Source of the DNA: Catajapyx aquilonaris
Taxonomy: Eukaryota
Assembly: GCA_000934665.2 (NCBI GenBank)
Contig: JYFJ02001535.1
Coordinates: forward strand, 1 to 64,000
Reading direction: 5' to 3'
DNA: 64,000 nucleotides
Shown piece after piece: positions 45,251 through 60,800 of this stretch. Position numbers and translations under genes: made by a program. The first letter of the stretch is position 1. Each line of letters begins with the position of its first letter. The notes under the pieces were generated by a model. That model was not told the DNA's origin. It worked only from the letters and a program-made list of their open reading frames with translations, and made no database searches.

Positions 45251-45740
45251 CAGTCAATGGCCAACTATTATTAGGCTCGAAATATTATCCTTCAAAAAAT
45301 GCGATAGTTGAGATATCGGGGTGCTAAGCGAAGGTCTTCCCGGTTCGTCACCCCTCATGGAATAACCTTGAGGGTGGAGGACGGCACGACGGCAGCCTCT
45401 GCGGTATACATGCCACTGGTGGTTTATTTAGCATTTTTGGCACATATGAATTTGAGGTGTTACAAGCATTCAAAATATTGGCTGGTAATTTGATTACGAA
45501 TATGTGACAATGCGCCGTTAATACTCGGCACATTCTGAAGGTACAGCAACGTGGATTAGAATTATTCTGGACATGTTGTGCCTGGATACTACTGATGAGT
45601 TAGTAGCAAATGAGGGATTTTGTGTGATATCTTTTGACATGTGGTAGTTTCTCTCAAAGGTAACTTTAAAAAAAAAGAAAGGCTTTATGCACATGACTGT
45701 ATGTGATCCTCCATTCAACATTATCATTAGGTGAGTGAGG

Positions 45741-47032
45741 ATGCCTGGAAGTGCTGCCAAAACGCAAGTTCCTAATGGGACGCAGCCCATCTCGGATGAG
45801 GATGAGACTGACGCCCTTCCAGACTCACTGGATGTGACTCCATATGACCTGTTTTGGACGTTTTTATCAGCTGTCACCTACATGGGTGATCTCTGTTACG
45901 ACATGTACCTGGTGCACAAGTTCTATCAGGATGGAAAGACCTGGTACTATTCCCTCACTTTGGCCTTTGCTCTTCTCCCTGCCATGGTCATGTCCGCTGT
46001 CAGCTTCTACTGGTACCTGCTGGATCGGGACAAGCCAGATCTTCCCCCTGTCAGTCGGACAAGATGGGCCTGCAGAGGCGTCTGCTTGGTGTTGTTCATG
46101 GCACCCATCGCAAGATATTATGATTCCCTGGAGTATGGCTGGATGAACATGAAGACAGAGAACCGGTTAGAAAAAAGGAAATTCTTCAGTCTGATGCTGC
46201 ATCAAGACGCAGATGCTGTGTTTCTGAGGCTCTTTGAGGCCTTCATGGAGTCTGCACCACAGTTCATATTGCATCTGTACATTTACAAGGTCAGTCAAGT
46301 TGATTTGTATACTCAAGCACTTACTTTTAATGCGGAATTCTCAAGCTTTGCATGTTTCTTCTGCAGGCGGATCTCACGTATGATGATGGTTTTTTCATTC
46401 CCGTTGGGCTTGCAATATCCCTGCTGAGCCTTGCTTGGTCTCTTACGGCATACCATCGCACCATGCGGTTTGTCCTTCCCAATAAAGGAAACCTCACCTG
46501 GGGTGCCACAGCCATGCAATTCTTCTGGTACCTGGGACTTTTGGCCTCGCGACTCATTGCACTTGCCCTCTTTGCAGTGGTGCTACCAGGATTCCTAGTG
46601 GTAGTGTGTGGTGCACATTGGTTGGTCATGACGGCCTGGATTATGTGGCAGAAGGGAGAAGCCTGCACTAACCGTTGTCTGCAGATCCTTTTTGACATTG
46701 CAATGGGGTTCGTCTACATATTTTGTTACGTAAACATGAAGGATGATGCCACACGCTGGCGGTATGTTGGATACTGCACTGTGTATTTTTTGGAGAATGC
46801 AACTCTGCTCACGTTTTGGTATGTGCAGCTATACCCGCACAGGTGGTACGACATCCTCTTGTTCATATGGGCTTTGTTAGCTTTCTTTGTGGGTGTGGCC
46901 TTCATGATCATGTACTACAGGTACTGTCATCCTAAGAACACCAATAAGAAACAGGTAGAAGAGTTTGCGATACAGCATGGTGTGAAAAGGTCACTTTCCA
47001 TGAGGGACTCCAGAGCGGAAAGTGAGATGTGA
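45741..47032 (+). CDS. XK-related protein (phospholipid scramblase family), 404 aa
   Basis: Exons 45741-46289 and 46367-47032. Multi-pass membrane protein with LRLFEAFMESAPQ, SLLSLAWSL, SRLIALALF and ENA motifs. Confidence 0.9.
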
Positions 47033-47736: not shown

Positions 47737-48867
47737 CTAAGGAGCTTCAGTTTCTGGAGGAGTGGGAACCCCAGGGTCTTCTGGCTTCTCAGTATTTCCA
47801 GCAGCGACTGCTTCCCCTTGCTGCGGCGGATCAACTTCCATTGGGGCCTCTTGGTTAGCACCTGAAAAGTAGAGCATTAGTCTCAAGCTTACTCAAGATT
47901 AATGACCACACTGCACCTGGTATCCCTTCCTCTGGGCTGTCCTGGCTTGGCCGACGTGGTATCTCACCAGACGGAGGGGATGCCTTCCCCTCGGGAGGCC
48001 CACTTGGCTGTGGTGGAGCTTCCATGGGAGGTTGGCCTCCTTCCATGTTTGGTGGGTATGAATGAGGCGGTCTAATGTGCTGCATGTGTGGTGGTGGCGG
48101 AGGCATGTACTGTTGTGGGGCCGGAGGAGGAAGCGGCGGCAACAATGGCTGTGGTGGGTATTTGGCCTGCTGTTGTTGCGGGGGGTAGTAATGCTGCTGC
48201 TGCTGCTGTGGAGGTATCGGTTGGGGAGGGTAATGCTGTGGATATGGTTGTGGGTACTGTGGCTGTGGCTCTGGATAGGCTTGTGGTTGGGGTGGCATAG
48301 AATGGGGTGGTTCTGCAGGAGCAGGTTGAGATTCCGGCTGTGCTGGTGGAGCTGGTGCTGGTGGCGGGGGAGGAGGAGGGGGAGGTGGGGGAGGAAGTGG
48401 TGCAGGTGGCATGGCAGGCTGCTGTTCAGGTGGGGTCGGAGGTGACTCAGGTTCGGCTTCCGGTTGTGGTTCCGGCTGTGGCTCGACCTGTGGCTGGGGA
48501 GTTTCAGCAGGAATGTCTGCAGCTGGTTGTGGCTGTTGGGGGTTTGGAGAGTCTGTTGAGGAGGACGAATCTTCCTCCTTTGTAACAGCTTCAGATTGGT
48601 TCTGCATCAACAAATCAATGGCAATGATCACATATACCGCAATGTCAAAATTCAAATATAGACAGGTTTGGGACTTTATTTAAACTTGGGCTCACCTGGG
48701 TCTCAGTTGTGTCCATTGGCTGCTCCTCTTGCTGCTGTGCTTGGGATTGTGGCTGCCCTTCCTCCTCACCCTTGCTTGCTGGAGGTGACTTTTCCTCCCC
48801 TTCCCCACCCCCTGGCTGTTGCTGCTCTTGCTGCTGCTGTTGCTGCTGTTGTTGCTGCTGATGTTGC

Positions 48868-48905
<38 letters not shown>

Positions 48906-51900
48906 TGCCCTGGTCTTCTCCTCAAACCCCCTCAATCTTTCATCCCTTTCTCGACGCATCATCTCATACTGTTTCTCTATCAGCTTTTGGTACATCTCTT
49001 CATCAATGGCCTTGCGACATATCTTGCGAAGCTCTTCCTGGAATGACTCACTCGTCTCCAAAAATTTGCGCTTCTTTGCTTCAAACTTCTCTTCAATCTG
49101 CTGGAGTTCGGCTTCCAGCTTTTTCTGCGGCAAAAATGCACCGTTACTTTGCTCAAACGTACAACAAAACTGCAGCTGCAGACTCTTAAGTAACAGGAGT
49201 CATTCTGGCTTTAACAAGAAAGTAAGAATATTGACCAGTAAATGGATCAATAGTGAAAAAAGGTGCAATTTCAATTGCAAAAAAAATAAATGTAAATGTC
49301 CTTTAAAGAATTTTTTTAAAATAAATTAAAGTAGTTATTACCTCTGGTGTTCCCACAAAAATAACGGCTGGGATCATAGACTTATATTTCACATTTTTTT
49401 ATAAATTATAAAAATGCTGTATCTACAGCTATATGCACCCAGTTAAGAATACAGGGTCTACTTGACCTTGACGAACTAAGTGTGGCACAGGGCGTACAAC
49501 CAAACCAAGTGGCTAGCACAGTTTGCAACATAAAGGTAAGTAATACTTCAAATCGCTTCAAATGCAATGAAACAAGAAATGCGGAAATTCAGAGTGTACT
49601 GGAGACCTATCCGTATGCTTACATCTGACAATAAGTAGTGTACAGCTATGAGTGCATTAGAAACATGGTATAGAACTATAGATGGTCTAAAACATTCAAA
49701 TAGGTCATTAAAATCATGTCCTTGAACATCTGACCCCACCTAGGGACGCCTGTGGACGGGTAGTGTCCACGGACATGACATCCACGGACGTGACAAACTC
49801 TCTGTTTATTCCACATAAAATGTGATAAGTTTAGGTTACAAACTTTTAGTTCAAATGAATAAGCTCTTTGTACCTAATAGCACACGTACTTGAGCAAAAA
49901 TTGAAATTTGAACTGCTTACCTACATTTACCAGGTGCCACAGACGTGACGCATTGATCTCGACACTTTACTAAATCTGAGAAACACTCTAAACTCTGAAG
50001 TAATTGAAATTGACAACTTACTGAAACAAATCAAAATGCTACAAAGTAGAAGATCTATGCAAGTGAATAACATGTTAAGCAATGAGTTTTAAAGAGCGCC
50101 TGACCTGGTGCATTGTAAGAGATTGCACTTGTCTCTTCAAGACCTGCATTCTGGCAGTGGTGACCACTGACCGAACATCTGGGACAATGGTGTCTGAGAA
50201 TATCTCGTTTATCAGGCGGTGATTGCGAATGTAGCGGGCATGTGCCACGTGCTTGAATGTGAAGCCATCATCTTGATCTTAAAATAAGAAAGCATTCTTT
50301 CTGGGTAAAATTGTTCACACAAATAAAGCAATGACAGCTAGTAGCTGCTAGTTCACCTAGCATGTGACCACAAATATTATTTACCATCTTCATCCTCGGC
50401 TGGTTGGATGTCAATTCGTCTATCAGCTGCTTTTGCAGCTCCTGGAGTCCTGTCCAGTACTTCTCTTTCCTCGGCTGCTTGCTGGGCTGAGGCACAAAAA
50501 GGTGCGTGTTTATAACAATTCTCAAGATGTAAATCCAAAGCCATGCACTTGCTATGCTTGAGCAGAAACTTACCTCGACTCTTTGCAGCAATATATGCTT
50601 GATAAGCAGGAGAACTGTGATATTGCTTCAAAGCTTTCTCATATTCTAGCTGCAAAGAGGAGGGAGAAGGAAGAGAAGTAGTTAGAAAAATATGCAAGCA
50701 GAATAATCAACAGCCACATGTAAGTTGTAAAGGAGAGAAGAGTGTTCCGGGCCAAGCCTGCACTATACATCTTCATGCATCATTCATGTCATCTTTCTGG
50801 CCAGGCATTGTTACCTTTTGCTTTGGCTGCTACCCACGACTGATACGCTGGTGAACTGTGATATGTTTTCACCAAATCATTATAATCGGCCTGCAAATGG
50901 TTAATTTTACTATTGGTAATACACTGCAATAATACATAAATACGTTTTATGCATGAATCCATGGAGACCAGGGAGCTAGGCTTAAATTGTGGCGTGTTCA
51001 CTGGATTCAGGAATTTGGAGTAATAATGTGCAAGGGCATATATATCCTGTTTTTTTCCACTAGTTCCTGCAACCTCTACTTCTATCCATGTAATCTATTT
51101 CCCCATCTATCCTTGTAATTCCGATCAGTGACAGAGAATATGTTTGAAATGCAATAATTGTCTTAGGATGACAGATTATATCCCCAGTAACATGCAAAAA
51201 CAATGTTCAGTGAACATCACTTCTCTCCATTGCTATTGCCTTCTTAATTTTCAGGTCTCATTTCTTGACATGTGCACAAAACGTTCATGGGCTGATCATT
51301 ATTTACTGAATGGAACTTGTTACCTGGTGTCATGCAGGTCCACTGTCACACATTCACTTGACAGTTTAAGAATATATGGACTTCATGGAATGTTCACTGG
51401 ACATTGTGCTACTAAGGATGGGATACAAAGTTCTCTGACTCTCACCTTCTCAGTCTCGTACTCATCGACATATTCCTGCTTGTCTGCATCAGGCAGGTCC
51501 CTCCACATCTGGCCTATGATCTTTCCAATCTCCCATAGTTTTAGATCCGGATTCTGGGCTTTCACTTGATCCCACACCTTGCGGCTGTATCGCATGTATG
51601 GCATCAAAGGCTTCTCAGGAGCCTTAGGGGGCTTCGGGATGCGTGTGTCTCCCTACAATCAAATATCATTAAAGATGCGCACCCCAACTGAATCATAAAA
51701 TCTACTTACGCCAGCTCCCTTGCTGCCCAATTTCTGAGGGTTGAATTGTGGATGGCTGTGAGAAGTGGTGACGAAAGGACTCTGATTTGCTGATGAGTCT
51801 TTCTGAAATTTTGGCAGAAAATATCATTAATGAAGTGGTTCACATTTCCTCCCTATTGCATTTGTGCAAATATAAGACTTACCGATCCAGAGGTAGAACT

Positions 51901-52845
51901 AGATCCCGTGGAAGCCCGCAAGCGCTCTGAAAATCCAAAAATCAATTACAATGATGCCATTTCAGTACACTTTATAAGTGGTCAATTCAGCAGTAAATAT
52001 CAAACCTAATGAGCCATGCTTAAATGTTAGTTGGTCATAAAATGCAATCATGCACACTAACAAGTAGTAGAAAATGTGAAAACACTACTTAAAACACACA
52101 GCAATATTGTCTTACCTTATCGTCTTTAGTACAAAAAAGAAAGTGTACCTCAGTGCATAGAGATGCACAAAATGAAGAAGAAAAATGATGAAACATGTTA
52201 TTGGGTTGGATTTTCCACACTTCTGATTTAGAGTTAGTTGCATAGAAAACATTAATTCTCTTCCTTACCTTTGAGAATGTTGAATGTCATAGGAGCTGGG
52301 GCTGACATTAGTGCTAAACACAGGAATGAAAAAAAGCCATGACATAACAAACGGCGGCCAATGAGAGTTGAAAAAGTAAAACGTAATAAATCAACAAAAA
52401 CATATTCTTAAGCATAAAGTGCTTTTCTCTTTGGTGGACCAAAATTAACTGAAGCACATGAGCAATAAAAAGACTTCTGTCAGGCCAAAACATTTGATGT
52501 ACACTCCTTTAAATCTGTAACACATGGCTGATTTGCAACTGGTTCCAGTTCATGGGAAACACTTTTTGATAACGTAGAGAAGAAGAGATGAGGAAAGGAA
52601 TGAAGCAAATAATATATTCCAACAGGACAACCAAACAAAAGTGTTTCAAATGCTCGCAAAATAAAGAATGCAGTCTCTATCCAAAAGTTACCCTACCATG
52701 CAGCATTCAAGATGTACGAGAGAGAGCAACATATATATAAAAAAAAGAGGATTTGTTTTGCAAAAGACATGGTGTACTAACGGTTTCCCAGGCCTCCTCC
52801 TGGTGCCGTGCTGGCAATTTGCCTGTAGTTTGGTGGAAGAGCCAT
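47737..52845 (-). CDS. SMARCE1: BAP111/dalao (SMARCE1/BAF57) SWI/SNF subunit, 680 aa
   Basis: Exons 52782-52845, 52269-52313, 51883-51926, 51710-51802, 51446-51652, [50815-50890 or 50574-50649], 50385-50486, 50105-50277, 48696-49124, 47917-48601, 47737-47861 sum to 2043 nt. [11 protein letters not shown] start, HMG box ([19 protein letters not shown]), NHRLI motif, coiled coil, Q/P-rich tail. Confidence 0.92.
48820..48905 (-). repeat. CAG/CAA polyglutamine tract in BAP111
   Basis: Encodes Q14-H-Q11-E-QQQ in the ORF translation. Confidence 0.9.
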
Positions 52846-53034
52846 TGCTGGGACCTGGGTTGCTTCAGCTCAAGATTCCAAAATATGACCTGAAAAATGC
52901 AATTGCCAAGTCCATAAGAGTCATTCCAGTTATCAAATTGACACCTACATTATTTATGACCAATGCACCTATACAACAAAGATTTTAAAAAACATGCATG
53001 ACTGTTTACATCATTGCAGAATGCTAGAAATTAA

Positions 53035-57800: not shown

Positions 57801-60800
57801 TTAAACTTCAGTTACTTTGCAAGTGCATGCTCAGGTGAATTTTATAGTGAATACTGTAGTATAATATTATTAGTTACCAATGTGGTTAAATGGGAAGTCG
57901 AACTGGGGTACCAGGTGAAGAGGCTTTTTGGCTTGTATTAATTTGGAAGGGACATGTACTATATCGCTCAAAACGATGGAGACACATTTGCATTTGTCTT
58001 CAATGGAAAATCGTCTCCCATCTTTTTGAGCGATAGAGTACCTCTCATGTTGGGTTATAGAAATTGACATGCTGGTGCTTACAAGGCCCATGTAAATTGG
58101 CTGTTCAATTTGGAGAGTAGACTTAATGGGATTTACATGGAACTTGTTGGAGCTTTAGACCCAGTCCTTCTCCCATCATTATGCTTGTGACTGTATATTA
58201 GTATGAAATTGATCATAATAATGGACATAGGAACTTTCCAGGAGGAAACACTTCATTGACTGTTATTTTTATTAGCATCGTGGTGTTTGAGATTTTTTCC
58301 TCTTTATTGACAGTATTAATTTAAATAAATGCCTTATGCCAGCTTGGTTGCATGAAGGAATTTGCTAAGTAGTGCTAGATTTTCTTGCTATTTTGTTTTA
58401 TTTGGAGGCCTTTCAGTTTTGCTCCACTTTTGATTTGGCTTATGCTTTGTGCTGTTTTCTGGTTTTTTTTCGTGCTTGGTGACAGGCTACTCCTTTGCTG
58501 CACTCAACAGTTCTCTACCACATGAACCTGCCGGTTAAGGTACAGTGTTAAGCCATTAGTATCTGACCATAAATTATGAAATCTTGTTGAAATTAATTCC
58601 TTGCCCAAGTTCAGTTTCATCTAATTCGCAAAATTTGTTGCAAATGCATTCACCCTCAGAATAGTACTTAGGTCACATTGGTCAACCACGTCAGTTAACA
58701 ATATTAACTTAACAGTGCCATTAAAAATTTCAGGATTGCAATGTCAGTATTGCTTCATGGCTGAATGCATTACAGCATCCAATTTTCAATTTGGGTTAGC
58801 ACATGTGAAAACAAAGGGCACCATACATGACAATCTCATACTCCATATAACTGGGACATAATATTTGACCTTGTAAAGAATACATGGGACAAGGAGGAGA
58901 AGCACGGGATGCTTTGTAATCATCTCAGATGTCTCAATTACATTCACATTAAATACCTACATACATATTGCCATGTCATTCTAACTGTTATTTGCATGCT
59001 AGTATTTCAGTGTGAAGTGTGTAACTGATTTTTTGTCTCCCGTCCCTAGAAACTACCTTTTGCCTCAGAATGTGAGCTGAAGCCTTCAGATATCAAAGTT
59101 CCGCCGCAGCCAACTCCATTTGATCACACAGCAGACTTTGACCAACGTTCTCTAGCTTTTTCACTGCCTATGGTGGATATGACACAGCCACCACCAGGAT
59201 TTTCCCTCCATCTCCAGATGGCACAGGGAGCTCACAATGCGGATGTTTATGAGATTGATGAAGGGAGATCTATGGACGGGGTCAATCTGGATAGAAACCG
59301 GTGAGAAAATATAATTAAAAGCCTCTTTAGTAACCTACTGGAGAGCTGCGTGTAGTTTAGACTAATGGATCAGTGGGAGATACTTTGCTTTTTAAGCGTT
59401 TACTACGAGCAGTTACTGCAGTATTTAATTTTAATTTGTACATGACAGAGATTTAAGTACAGTAAAAGTAATAATACTTTCCAACCATTCTGGGATTTGA
59501 CATCTCGCTCAAGTTAAATCACTTTGGGTCTTACATGAATGTATTTAGTAATTATGACAGTTATTTGCACTTTCCGAGCGGTCAGTTGCACTTCTCACTT
59601 CCAGGCACTTCTTTTTTGTCACTGACTACATTTGTTGGAAAAATTATCAAGATGGTTTGTGTTGTTGCATGAAAGCAGTGCTTTTGAAGCCTACTGTTCT
59701 GAAGAGGGCTAAGAATTTCTGTGATCGTGTATTCCAGGGTGCACGGTGAGCCAGAAGTGATTGAGATAAAGGAGGACAGGAGCCGTAGCCGCAGCCGTTC
59801 CAGGAGTCGCAGCCGAAGCAGAAGTCGGCGTCATCGCCGCAGCCGTTCCAGATCTCGTGACAGGGGACGTCGCGGTGGAGGGACAAGTGGGCGCAGGTCC
59901 CGAAGCCATTCTCCTCGGTCCTCATCCCGTCGGAACTCCCGTCGTTCTCGTTCTCAAGATAAGGAGCGAGAGAGGCAAAAAGAAAAGGAGAGGGAGGAGA
60001 GGGAGAAGGAACGAGAGAAAGAAAGGGAGCGGCGCAAGCGAGGGTTGCCACCAATCAAGAAGGAGCAATTAAGTGTGTGCAGCACCACCCTGTGGGTGGG
60101 GCACTTGTCCAAGTTGGTTCACCAGGAAGAGCTGTCTGACTGCTTCGGAGAGTATGGAGACATTGTGTCCATTGATCTTATTCCGCCTCGAGGTTGTGCC
60201 TTCATTTGCATGAACAGGAGGCAGGATGCACACAGGGCCTTACAGAAGCTCAAGAATCACCGACTCCAAGGAAAGGCAATCACTGTAAGGAACTCTCATT
60301 CAGGAAATATCATTCATAAATATTTGAGCGCATTATTGACAATCTGAGTTTTAAAATTTAATACTGGGAGGGCATGACATACATACTGTCAAGGAAAATT
60401 TACTTCTCTCTAAAATTCGTGACTGGTTTTCAGCTGGCCTGGGCCCCTGGTAAAGGAGTCAAAGGGAAGGACTGGAAAGACTACTGGGAAGTGGATCTTG
60501 GAGTGTCTTATATTCCATGGAGTAAACTTACCACTGAGACAGACTTGGATGCCTTTGAGGATGGAGGGATGGTTGATGAGGAGACTGTTCCGGAATACTT
60601 GGCCAGTGAGTGCATCCTCCTTTGTAACACAGAATGATGACACTGTGTGGCAAATGAAAAAGTAGGGGAAAGGCTGCCGTCGTGGGGTAAACACAGTCCA
60701 TATTCACCAGCTTGCGGTAGTAGAACATGCAGCATTCTGACAATAATTATCCTACTCTAAATTCAAGTAGAAGCTTAGGGAATTAGTACCTTGCTGCAAG

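Follow-up and report, generated by a model that had tools for sequence, protein, structure and literature searches.

A probable pair of mutually exclusive exons at the end of the HMG box in the SMARCE1/BAP111 gene of Catajapyx aquilonaris

The HMG box of BAP111/SMARCE1, a core subunit shared by the two major SWI/SNF-type remodellers, is the part of this subunit that binds DNA. In a stretch of 64,000 nucleotides (nt) from the genome of Catajapyx aquilonaris (GenBank assembly GCA_000934665.2, contig JYFJ02001535.1, positions 1 to 64,000; the whole stretch is called the window below), we examined a minus-strand gene that we identify by homology as the SMARCE1/BAF57/BAP111 ortholog. Between its HMG-box exon and the next constitutive exon lie two homologous, stop-free exons of 76 nt, exon A (50815-50890) and, downstream of it, exon B (50574-50649), which encode two versions of one 25-residue block. 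We consider it likely that they form a genuine tandem-duplicated pair whose mutually exclusive use is enforced by the reading frame, with B as the default form and A as a conserved alternative. The carrying evidence is the anatomy of the two exons, the conservation of both copies at the protein level, a spliced transcript contig that contains B, and gene models of relatives in which the same block is swapped.

Anatomy, conservation and transcripts of exons A and B

The gene was assigned to SMARCE1/BAF57/BAP111 because the HMG exon and exons A and B all match human SMARCE1. The HMG exon matched human SMARCE1 in the BAF structure (6lth_Q) with an E value of 2e-33 and the BAF57 HMG crystal chain 7cyu_A with an E value of 2e-30; exon A aligned with residues 125-147 of the human protein (E 9e-3) and exon B with residues 124-148 (E 7e-5). 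To judge from these overlapping alignments, A and B are alternative versions of one SMARCE1 segment. The rest of the protein is built as in SMARCE proteins, with one HMG box near the N-terminus, a proline-rich stretch (PKPPKxPxKP) before the box, an NHRLI helix encoded in exon 50105-50277 and a coiled-coil helix encoded at ~49127. PMC13580576 describes the NHRLI and coiled-coil helices as conserved, defining SMARCE elements that dock into the base module. Both segments are helical in models of homologs (predicted local distance difference test, pLDDT, ~90), and their docking into a base module in Catajapyx is a prediction.

The first-pass annotation of the window, which was made from the letters alone, had described the gene as BAP111/SMARCE1 and the two exons as stop-free, of phase 0 to phase 1 and flanked by canonical AG/GT, and had noted that including both or neither shifts the frame; each of these points held, the translations included. 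The HMG exon ends at 51446 with TACGAGACTGAGAAG, followed by the donor GTGAGA. Exon A is bounded by ccatttgcAG, runs from GCCGAT to CAAAAG and is followed by GTaaca, and exon B is bounded by cctctttgcAG, runs from CTAGAA to GTCGAG and is followed by GTaagt. Because 76 is not a multiple of three, the reading frame imposes an either/or rule, and the spliced translation is open only with A alone or with B alone. An mRNA with A and B meets a stop three codons into B (...AKAKARI*), and an mRNA with neither exon is shifted in frame and then runs into stops.

Prediction of tandem-duplicated mutually exclusive exons relies on neighbouring exons of one gene that are homologous, agree in phase, match or nearly match in length and each carry splice sites. 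Exons A and B are homologous neighbours of equal length and phase, each has its own splice sites, no exon lies between them, and both joint inclusion and joint skipping are unproductive, being out of frame. When all 40,049 stop-free 25-residue windows from the six frames of the 64-kb window were scored without gaps by BLOSUM62, A against B scored 79 and the next best pairs scored 21-23; no third copy of the block was found in this six-frame scan.

The two copies have diverged strongly as DNA. Thirteen of the 25 residues are identical between A and B, 8 of the 13 being encoded by different codons, and 43 of 76 nucleotides are identical (P for at least 43 of 76, 2e-8). Beyond the splice signals, the flanking 76-nt segments are 20/76 and 14/76 identical, against an expectation of 0.26 from composition, and the flanks of A and B cannot be aligned except for TTTGCAG at the acceptor. 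By the Nei-Gojobori method, the proportion of synonymous differences (pS) was 0.82, which is saturated, and that of nonsynonymous differences (pN) was 0.34; identity at codon positions 1, 2 and 3 was 15, 19 and 8 of 25, respectively. The residues differ at block positions 1, 2, 4, 5, 6, 7, 9, 18, 19, 20, 24 and 25, and both A and B keep every one of the six block positions that do not vary among 33 aligned homologs (Y3, Y10, S13, P14, A22 and K23). Purifying selection acting on both copies after an ancient duplication would leave such a pattern, which is unlike that of a long-dead pseudo-exon. Because third codon positions and flanks are randomised, both copies appear to have been kept coding since the duplication.

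X1, a run of unrecorded kind that is available as contigs, was the only public run to contain the locus, with 0.28 of the sampled words present. One X1 contig of 1,110 nt, with 0 mismatches to the window, joins eight exons (marked X1 in Table 1) through B and skips A, with the joints 51446->50649 and 50574->50486 around exon B. All of its introns read CT..AC on the plus strand, that is GT..AG on the strand of the gene. Of the mutually exclusive splicing that the first-pass annotation had proposed, the use of B is thereby shown by a spliced contig, but A is in no contig of the run. The splice sites of B are the stronger and the contig is B-only, which suggests that B is used by default and that A is a regulated or minor form.

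The swapped block in relatives and the weighing of alternatives

The HMG-exon protein gave 1,230 hits in a search, with the best 120 listed, and the 25 residues after YE(x)EK were extracted from the proteins collected. Among the best 120 of the 1,230, no protein matches the window exactly. The spliced B form, 268 residues long, is 78-80% identical to Blattella germanica (P0018) and to P0004/P0005, 73% identical to Ischnura elegans and 62-66% identical to malacostracan proteins. By these values the protein lies nearest to those of polyneopteran and odonate insects, as would be expected if its source is an insect or a near relative among the hexapods.

The first-pass annotation had ascribed the pair to this one lineage and had made its novelty depend on the pair not being annotated in related species. 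It is indeed present in the window species, but this assignment is too narrow and the novelty of annotation falls, as RefSeq gene models already contain block-swapped isoforms in Oratosquilla oratoria, Palaemon carinicauda and an insect-like species. In Oratosquilla oratoria, the block reads ADYNKALEVYHNSPAYQQYLAAKSK in 13 isoforms and LEYEKAMKTYHASPSYQAYLNAKSK in 6; among named isoforms X3 is A-type and X4 is B-type, P0193 and P0186 are likewise A-type and B-type, and P0010 and P0009, both of 480 residues, are identical outside the block. Of the 10 isoforms of Palaemon carinicauda, 3 are A-type and 7 are B-type, and in Penaeus japonicus the A-type P0032 and several B-type proteins (P0024 and others) come from one contig. 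A-type isoforms are also present in Penaeus chinensis and Cherax quadricarinatus, and several further RefSeq species have both block types. Because the JGI contigs that encode A-type proteins of 413-510 residues (P0120, P0121, P0165 and P0166; contigs of 1.7-2.8 kb) are intron-free, A-type blocks occur in mRNA.

The insect-like species, whose P0185 (XP_066998924.2) maps to a 527-Mb chromosome, has 7 isoforms, one of them A-type. P0185 agrees with P0005 at 565 of 576 residues, and the two diverge solely within the block, which reads VLYNEALKSYHSSPAYVAWMTAKTK in P0185 and LEYEKNLKVYHNSPAYVAYIAAKTR in P0005. The A block of P0185 and that of the window have YN, YHSSPAY, W and the final K in common. 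Chelicerates, molluscs, a nemertean, a sea anemone and a vertebrate-like sequence have one block type each, and no isoform pair of Catajapyx itself is annotated in the data searched. Just after the block, cockroach- and termite-like homologs vary between AAKTRGKSAQQ/AQA (P0004, P0018, P0021-P0023, P0182-P0184) and AAKTRAQQ/AQA (P0005, P0019, P0020), a 3-residue alternative junction adjoining the swapped exon that has no obvious equivalent in the window.

Searches with A-type sequences reached further copies. The A region of P0185 found 52 proteins, nearly all from ticks, together with P0005 and P0004, and the 90% clustering could mask further A-type insects. A 40-residue reference from the window around exon A, with intron codons on both sides, gave one candidate and no hit in the protein search. 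When the exon A region (30 residues) was compared with 1.84 billion representatives, nine hits were obtained at E <= 0.001, among them the SMARCE1 exon-like open reading frames (ORFs) P0169, P0170, P0173, P0174 and P0175; P0168 and P0172 were rejected as unrelated repeat proteins, and P0177, a cluster mate of P0169, as an unrelated protein. P0169 is an exon ORF with intron flanks from another genome and carries VDYNDALKSYHNSPAYQNWISLKAK. P0170 (Logan, again another genome) is a 129-residue ORF that runs in one frame through an A-like copy and on into a B-like one, the order also found in the window. The transcript-like P0173 (Logan, 269 residues) repeats a PDKPLxPYxRYS stretch and carries two HMG-tail blocks that have diverged, AAYDEALKSYYSSPEYQAWE and AEYREALKSYLSSPEYQAWE; it may be a tandemly duplicated or a misassembled SMARCE1.

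Several observations weigh against a pair in working use. No X1 contig from the species itself contains exon A, although such contigs drop rare variants and hence give no evidence either way. The splice sites of A are weak, with 9/20 pyrimidines at the acceptor against 19/20 for B, and GTAACA as the donor. Most inspected insects have B-type isoforms only: Periplaneta americana (13/13), Ischnura (7/7), Rhynchophorus (4/4), Belonocnema (3/3 members with the region), Cimex (3 of 5 members, those with the HMG box) and four further insect clusters (10/10, 3/3, 4/4 and 2/2 members with the region). The RefSeq XP isoforms are computed predictions. In addition, the upstream A-like copy of P0170 is without three of the six invariant positions (Y10, A22 and K23) and looks like an A copy decaying in another lineage. 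The skipped exon, its poor splice sites, the B-only insects and the degraded copy of P0170 would all fit exon A being a silent relic, duplicated and intact-looking and no longer spliced into mRNA in this species. We find this improbable, as synonymous sites are saturated and yet A keeps its length, its frame, its splice dinucleotides and all six invariant positions, and its differences from B follow a coding pattern over the codon positions, even if a recently silenced exon could still look so. A role of exon A mainly as a dosage valve, in which the stop of the A+B message would lower BAP111 through mRNA decay and no second protein would be made, seems very improbable to us. The premature stop in that message is real, and the 165-nt intron between A and B is above the minimum intron length for splicing, so that both exons could be joined. 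However, a poison exon needs no conservation as protein and A is conserved at that level, relatives have in-frame A-only isoforms and mRNAs, and no A+B form is among the X1 contigs, which drop rare forms.

For a mutually exclusive pair with B as default, the following course of events can be proposed. An old tandem duplication of the 76-nt exon would have left A upstream and B downstream under either/or splicing. Messages with both exons or with neither have early stops and would be removed by nonsense-mediated decay, leaving A-only and B-only mRNAs to encode protein. With its poor pyrimidine tract and weaker donor, A probably needs an activator or repression of B, and the A form may be minor or restricted to certain tissues or stages. 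The outcome would be two flavours of BAP/PBAP with a slightly different HMG module and differing contacts to DNA or to partners, and the two BAF complexes of different DNA-binding behaviour that the first-pass annotation had put forward may be conceived in this way. In many lineages the pair would later have been lost, decayed or homogenised.

As to the age of the pair, every B-type block, whether from insects, from malacostracans or from the window, has EYEK (positions 2-5) and AY (positions 18-19), and outgroup blocks mostly have YN(E/D) and W at position 19. These outgroup states are kept by A of the window (YND...SW), A of P0185 (YNE...AW) and P0169 (YND...NW). Because A keeps the outgroup states and the B signature is shared by insects and malacostracans, the split between A and B would predate their divergence, and parsimony over the 25 residues leads us to favour, with some reserve, a single duplication before the two groups separated. 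The malacostracan A blocks (ADYNKALEVYH...QQYLAAKSK) form a mosaic: position 4 is N or T, position 5 is K and position 19 is Y. They have 15-18 residues in common with window B, against 13-15 with window A, and under a single origin they would be either secondary copies of B or A blocks in part homogenised with it.

The same similarity to window B would be expected if insects and malacostracans had duplicated the exon separately, which would make the pair recurrent rather than ancient. A maximum-likelihood tree of the 25 columns points in this direction and against a single origin: the A and B blocks of malacostracans cluster together in it (85/80), within the B-type group, and it places window A, A of the insect-like species and P0169 with outgroup-type sequences. 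The grouping fits independent duplications as well as it fits homogenisation, the mosaic is as expected after partial homogenisation, and 18 of the 31 inner branches of the tree, built on only 25 columns, are open. Moreover, window A and A of the insect-like species keep N4, D/E5 and W19, which are replaced in all B-types, so that the hexapod A/B split should predate the B signature. Separate duplications thus appear rather unlikely to us. If the duplication was single, a wider picture may be sketched tentatively, in which the pair is a switch of roughly half a billion years of age, A being the ancestral helix-3 tail and B a pancrustacean invention, with two classes of BAP/PBAP remodellers that would differ in their contacts to DNA or to partners and with repeated loss or decay in insects, apparently including the best-studied models. 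Were this true, the repeated loss in the best-studied insect models would explain why the pair went unnoticed.

The block in the protein and the RNA around the exons

AlphaFold2 models were built for P0185 (A) and P0005 (B), the closest isoform pair, each from a 33-sequence alignment. Both models place helices at 113-128 and 134-146/147 and then helix 3 (150-176), which a break at residue 177 separates from a further helix (178-203); the block covers residues 165-189. The first-pass annotation had written of a swapped last helix of the HMG box and of a linker behind helix 3. In the models neither fits: the block is predicted to begin 12 residues before the end of helix 3, which is 27 residues long, to continue across a one-residue break and to take in 12 residues at the start of the next helix, and what follows helix 3 is a confidently predicted second helix rather than a loose linker. 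The conserved S-P turn lies within the block, between helix 3 and the next helix. Averaged in 10-residue bins over 161-190, pLDDT was 94, 92 and 87 with A and 96, 94 and 89 with B. The Pfam HMG_box match extends 10 residues into the block and scores 65.0 and 65.3 bits for the two isoforms. The HMG box of the model superposes on the BAF57 HMG crystal structure 7cyu with a template modelling (TM) score of 0.95 and a root-mean-square deviation (rmsd) of 0.6 Å over 61 columns. Placing the block by means of the SMARCE1 chains of cryo-EM structures (6lth_Q, 7vdv_Z and 7y8r_Q, with 105, 92 and 91 residues modelled) gave an rmsd of 18-23 Å and was unusable.

We also looked for features of the RNA that could keep the exons apart. 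Steric exclusion by a too-short intron between A and B was set aside as unlikely, the intron being 165 nt. An 11-bp perfect inverted repeat (50579-50589/50649-50659) pairs the acceptor of exon B, CTCTTTGCAG and the following C, with the 3' end of B, GCTGCAAAGAG, and could form a hairpin that masks the splice site; at exon A the acceptor is TTTGCAG too, and the exon ends in GCAAAAG, which is partly complementary. The exon B hairpin is no better than shuffled sequences (z -1.38; 19 of 200 shuffles fold as well), nor is folding of the exon A region (z 0.07), so that folding of this one genome lent no support to RNA structure as the mechanism of exclusivity. Short purine/pyrimidine complements exist between the upstream intron and the tract ahead of exon B. 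The 555-nt intron further contains an 18-nt inverted repeat, 94% complementary (51200-51217/51390-51407), with 172 nt between its arms.

Gene model, neighbouring genes and comparison with known systems

The gene model on the minus strand is given in Table 1. Toward the C-terminus (window 47855-49199, minus strand), the protein has a long glutamine run, encoded by CAG repeats at ~48700-48930, and a very proline-rich tail, which resemble the low-complexity tails of insect homologs.

Table 1 Exons and introns of the SMARCE1/BAP111 gene in the window, listed in the direction of transcription (X1, exon joined in the 1,110-nt contig)
Feature	Position	Strand	Basis
First coding exon, with start codon, MALPPNYRQ...	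52782..52890	-	X1 spliced contig; open frame; tblastn of insect homologs
Small coding exon, 45 nt	52269..52313	-	X1 contig joints 51926->52269 and 52313->52782; open frame
Small coding exon, 44 nt	51883..51926	-	X1 contig joints; open frame
Coding exon upstream of the HMG exon	51710..51802	-	X1 contig piece; joint cut shifted by +1 gives canonical GT..AG
HMG-box exon: helices 1 and 2 and first half of helix 3; ends YETEK, phase 0	51446..51652	-	SMARCE1 match; X1 contig
Intron from HMG exon to exon A, 555 nt	50891..51445	-	Minus-strand reading
Exon A, 76 nt; acceptor 9/20 pyrimidines, donor GTAACA	50815..50890	-	Aligns with SMARCE1 125-147; no X1 cover
Intron from A to B, 165 nt; long pyrimidine tract and ctaac motif ahead of exon B	50650..50814	-	Minus-strand reading
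Exon B, 76 nt; acceptor 19/20 pyrimidines, donor GTAAGT	50574..50649	-	Aligns with SMARCE1 124-148; in X1 contig
Next constitutive exon, entered in phase 1, preceded by gtgcctcAG	50385..50486	-	X1 contig; open frame
Exon with NHRLI helix	50105..50277	-	X1 contig; open frame; tblastn
Start of coiled-coil exon	48909..49127	-	tblastn of P0018 and P0185; X1 contig end at 50105 reads in; ORF 48645-49199

Other genes were noted on the plus strand of the window. Seven tandem, intron-poor ORFs of ~270-470 codons, spaced by ~3.4 kb, lie at 3850-26782 and all match Pfam EcKL (ecdysteroid kinase-like; E 1e-44 to 4e-61); by these matches the array is a local gene-family expansion, typical of arthropod detoxification/ecdysteroid-kinase clusters, and agrees with an arthropod source. 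The ORF at 45735-47032 has an XK-related match (Pfam PF09815, E 1e-35), and a 233-codon ORF comes after it and overlaps it; this is probably an XKR gene that adjoins BAP111 on the opposite strand, shortly beyond its 3' end. A 214-codon ORF at 59703-60347 has an RRM_1 RNA-recognition motif (E 8e-12).

The variety of vertebrate remodellers arises mostly through paralogous subunits. A conserved swap of half of helix 3 and of the next helix would give two remodeller flavours from one gene. The 12 differing residues offer a small, clean target for isoform-specific knock-outs and DNA-binding assays in crustaceans and hemimetabolous insects, and the exon pair may serve as a marker for dating exon duplications in Pancrustacea. 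Its wider impact is limited, as the device is well known, the isoforms are in public models and a functional difference between them is putative; what gives it appeal is that it lies within the DNA-binding module of a core subunit of remodellers and seems to be ancient, the device itself being ordinary. According to the first-pass annotation, such a pair is not known to be described for dalao/SMARCE1, and this held in full-text searches, which covered titles and the openings of abstracts and found no description; supplementary catalogues of mutually exclusive exons in insects could list the event. As far as these searches reach, the exon pair is present in public gene models of relatives but without a printed description.

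The nearest known counterparts are the SMARCE1/Bap111 isoforms of other arthropods in RefSeq, in which the 25-residue block after YE(x)EK is likewise swapped, with the rest of the protein unchanged in the pairs P0009/P0010 and P0185/P0005; their B-type blocks have LEYEK...AY in common. They differ in being computed models from other species, and malacostracan A is nearer to the B-types than window A is. In the exon clusters of insect genes such as Dscam1 and 14-3-3 xi, exclusivity is enforced by RNA pairing between docking sites and selectors. The gene described here resembles them in being an arthropod gene with tandem alternative exons and some intron-intron complementarity, and differs in that no significant pairing was detected in the one genome folded. 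It also resembles the known class of tandem-duplicated mutually exclusive exons (PMC9741552, PMC5740500), which are adjacent, homologous, of equal length and phase, used one per mRNA and ancient, and whose isoforms differ in a homologous stretch alone; SMARCE1 did not surface with these catalogues in the searches made, and exclusivity here can be explained by the reading frame alone. With the isoforms of human BAF57/SMARCE1 the pair shares the protein family and the use of alternative splicing to diversify a core BAF subunit, whereas human SMARCE1 has one block that aligns to both A and B.

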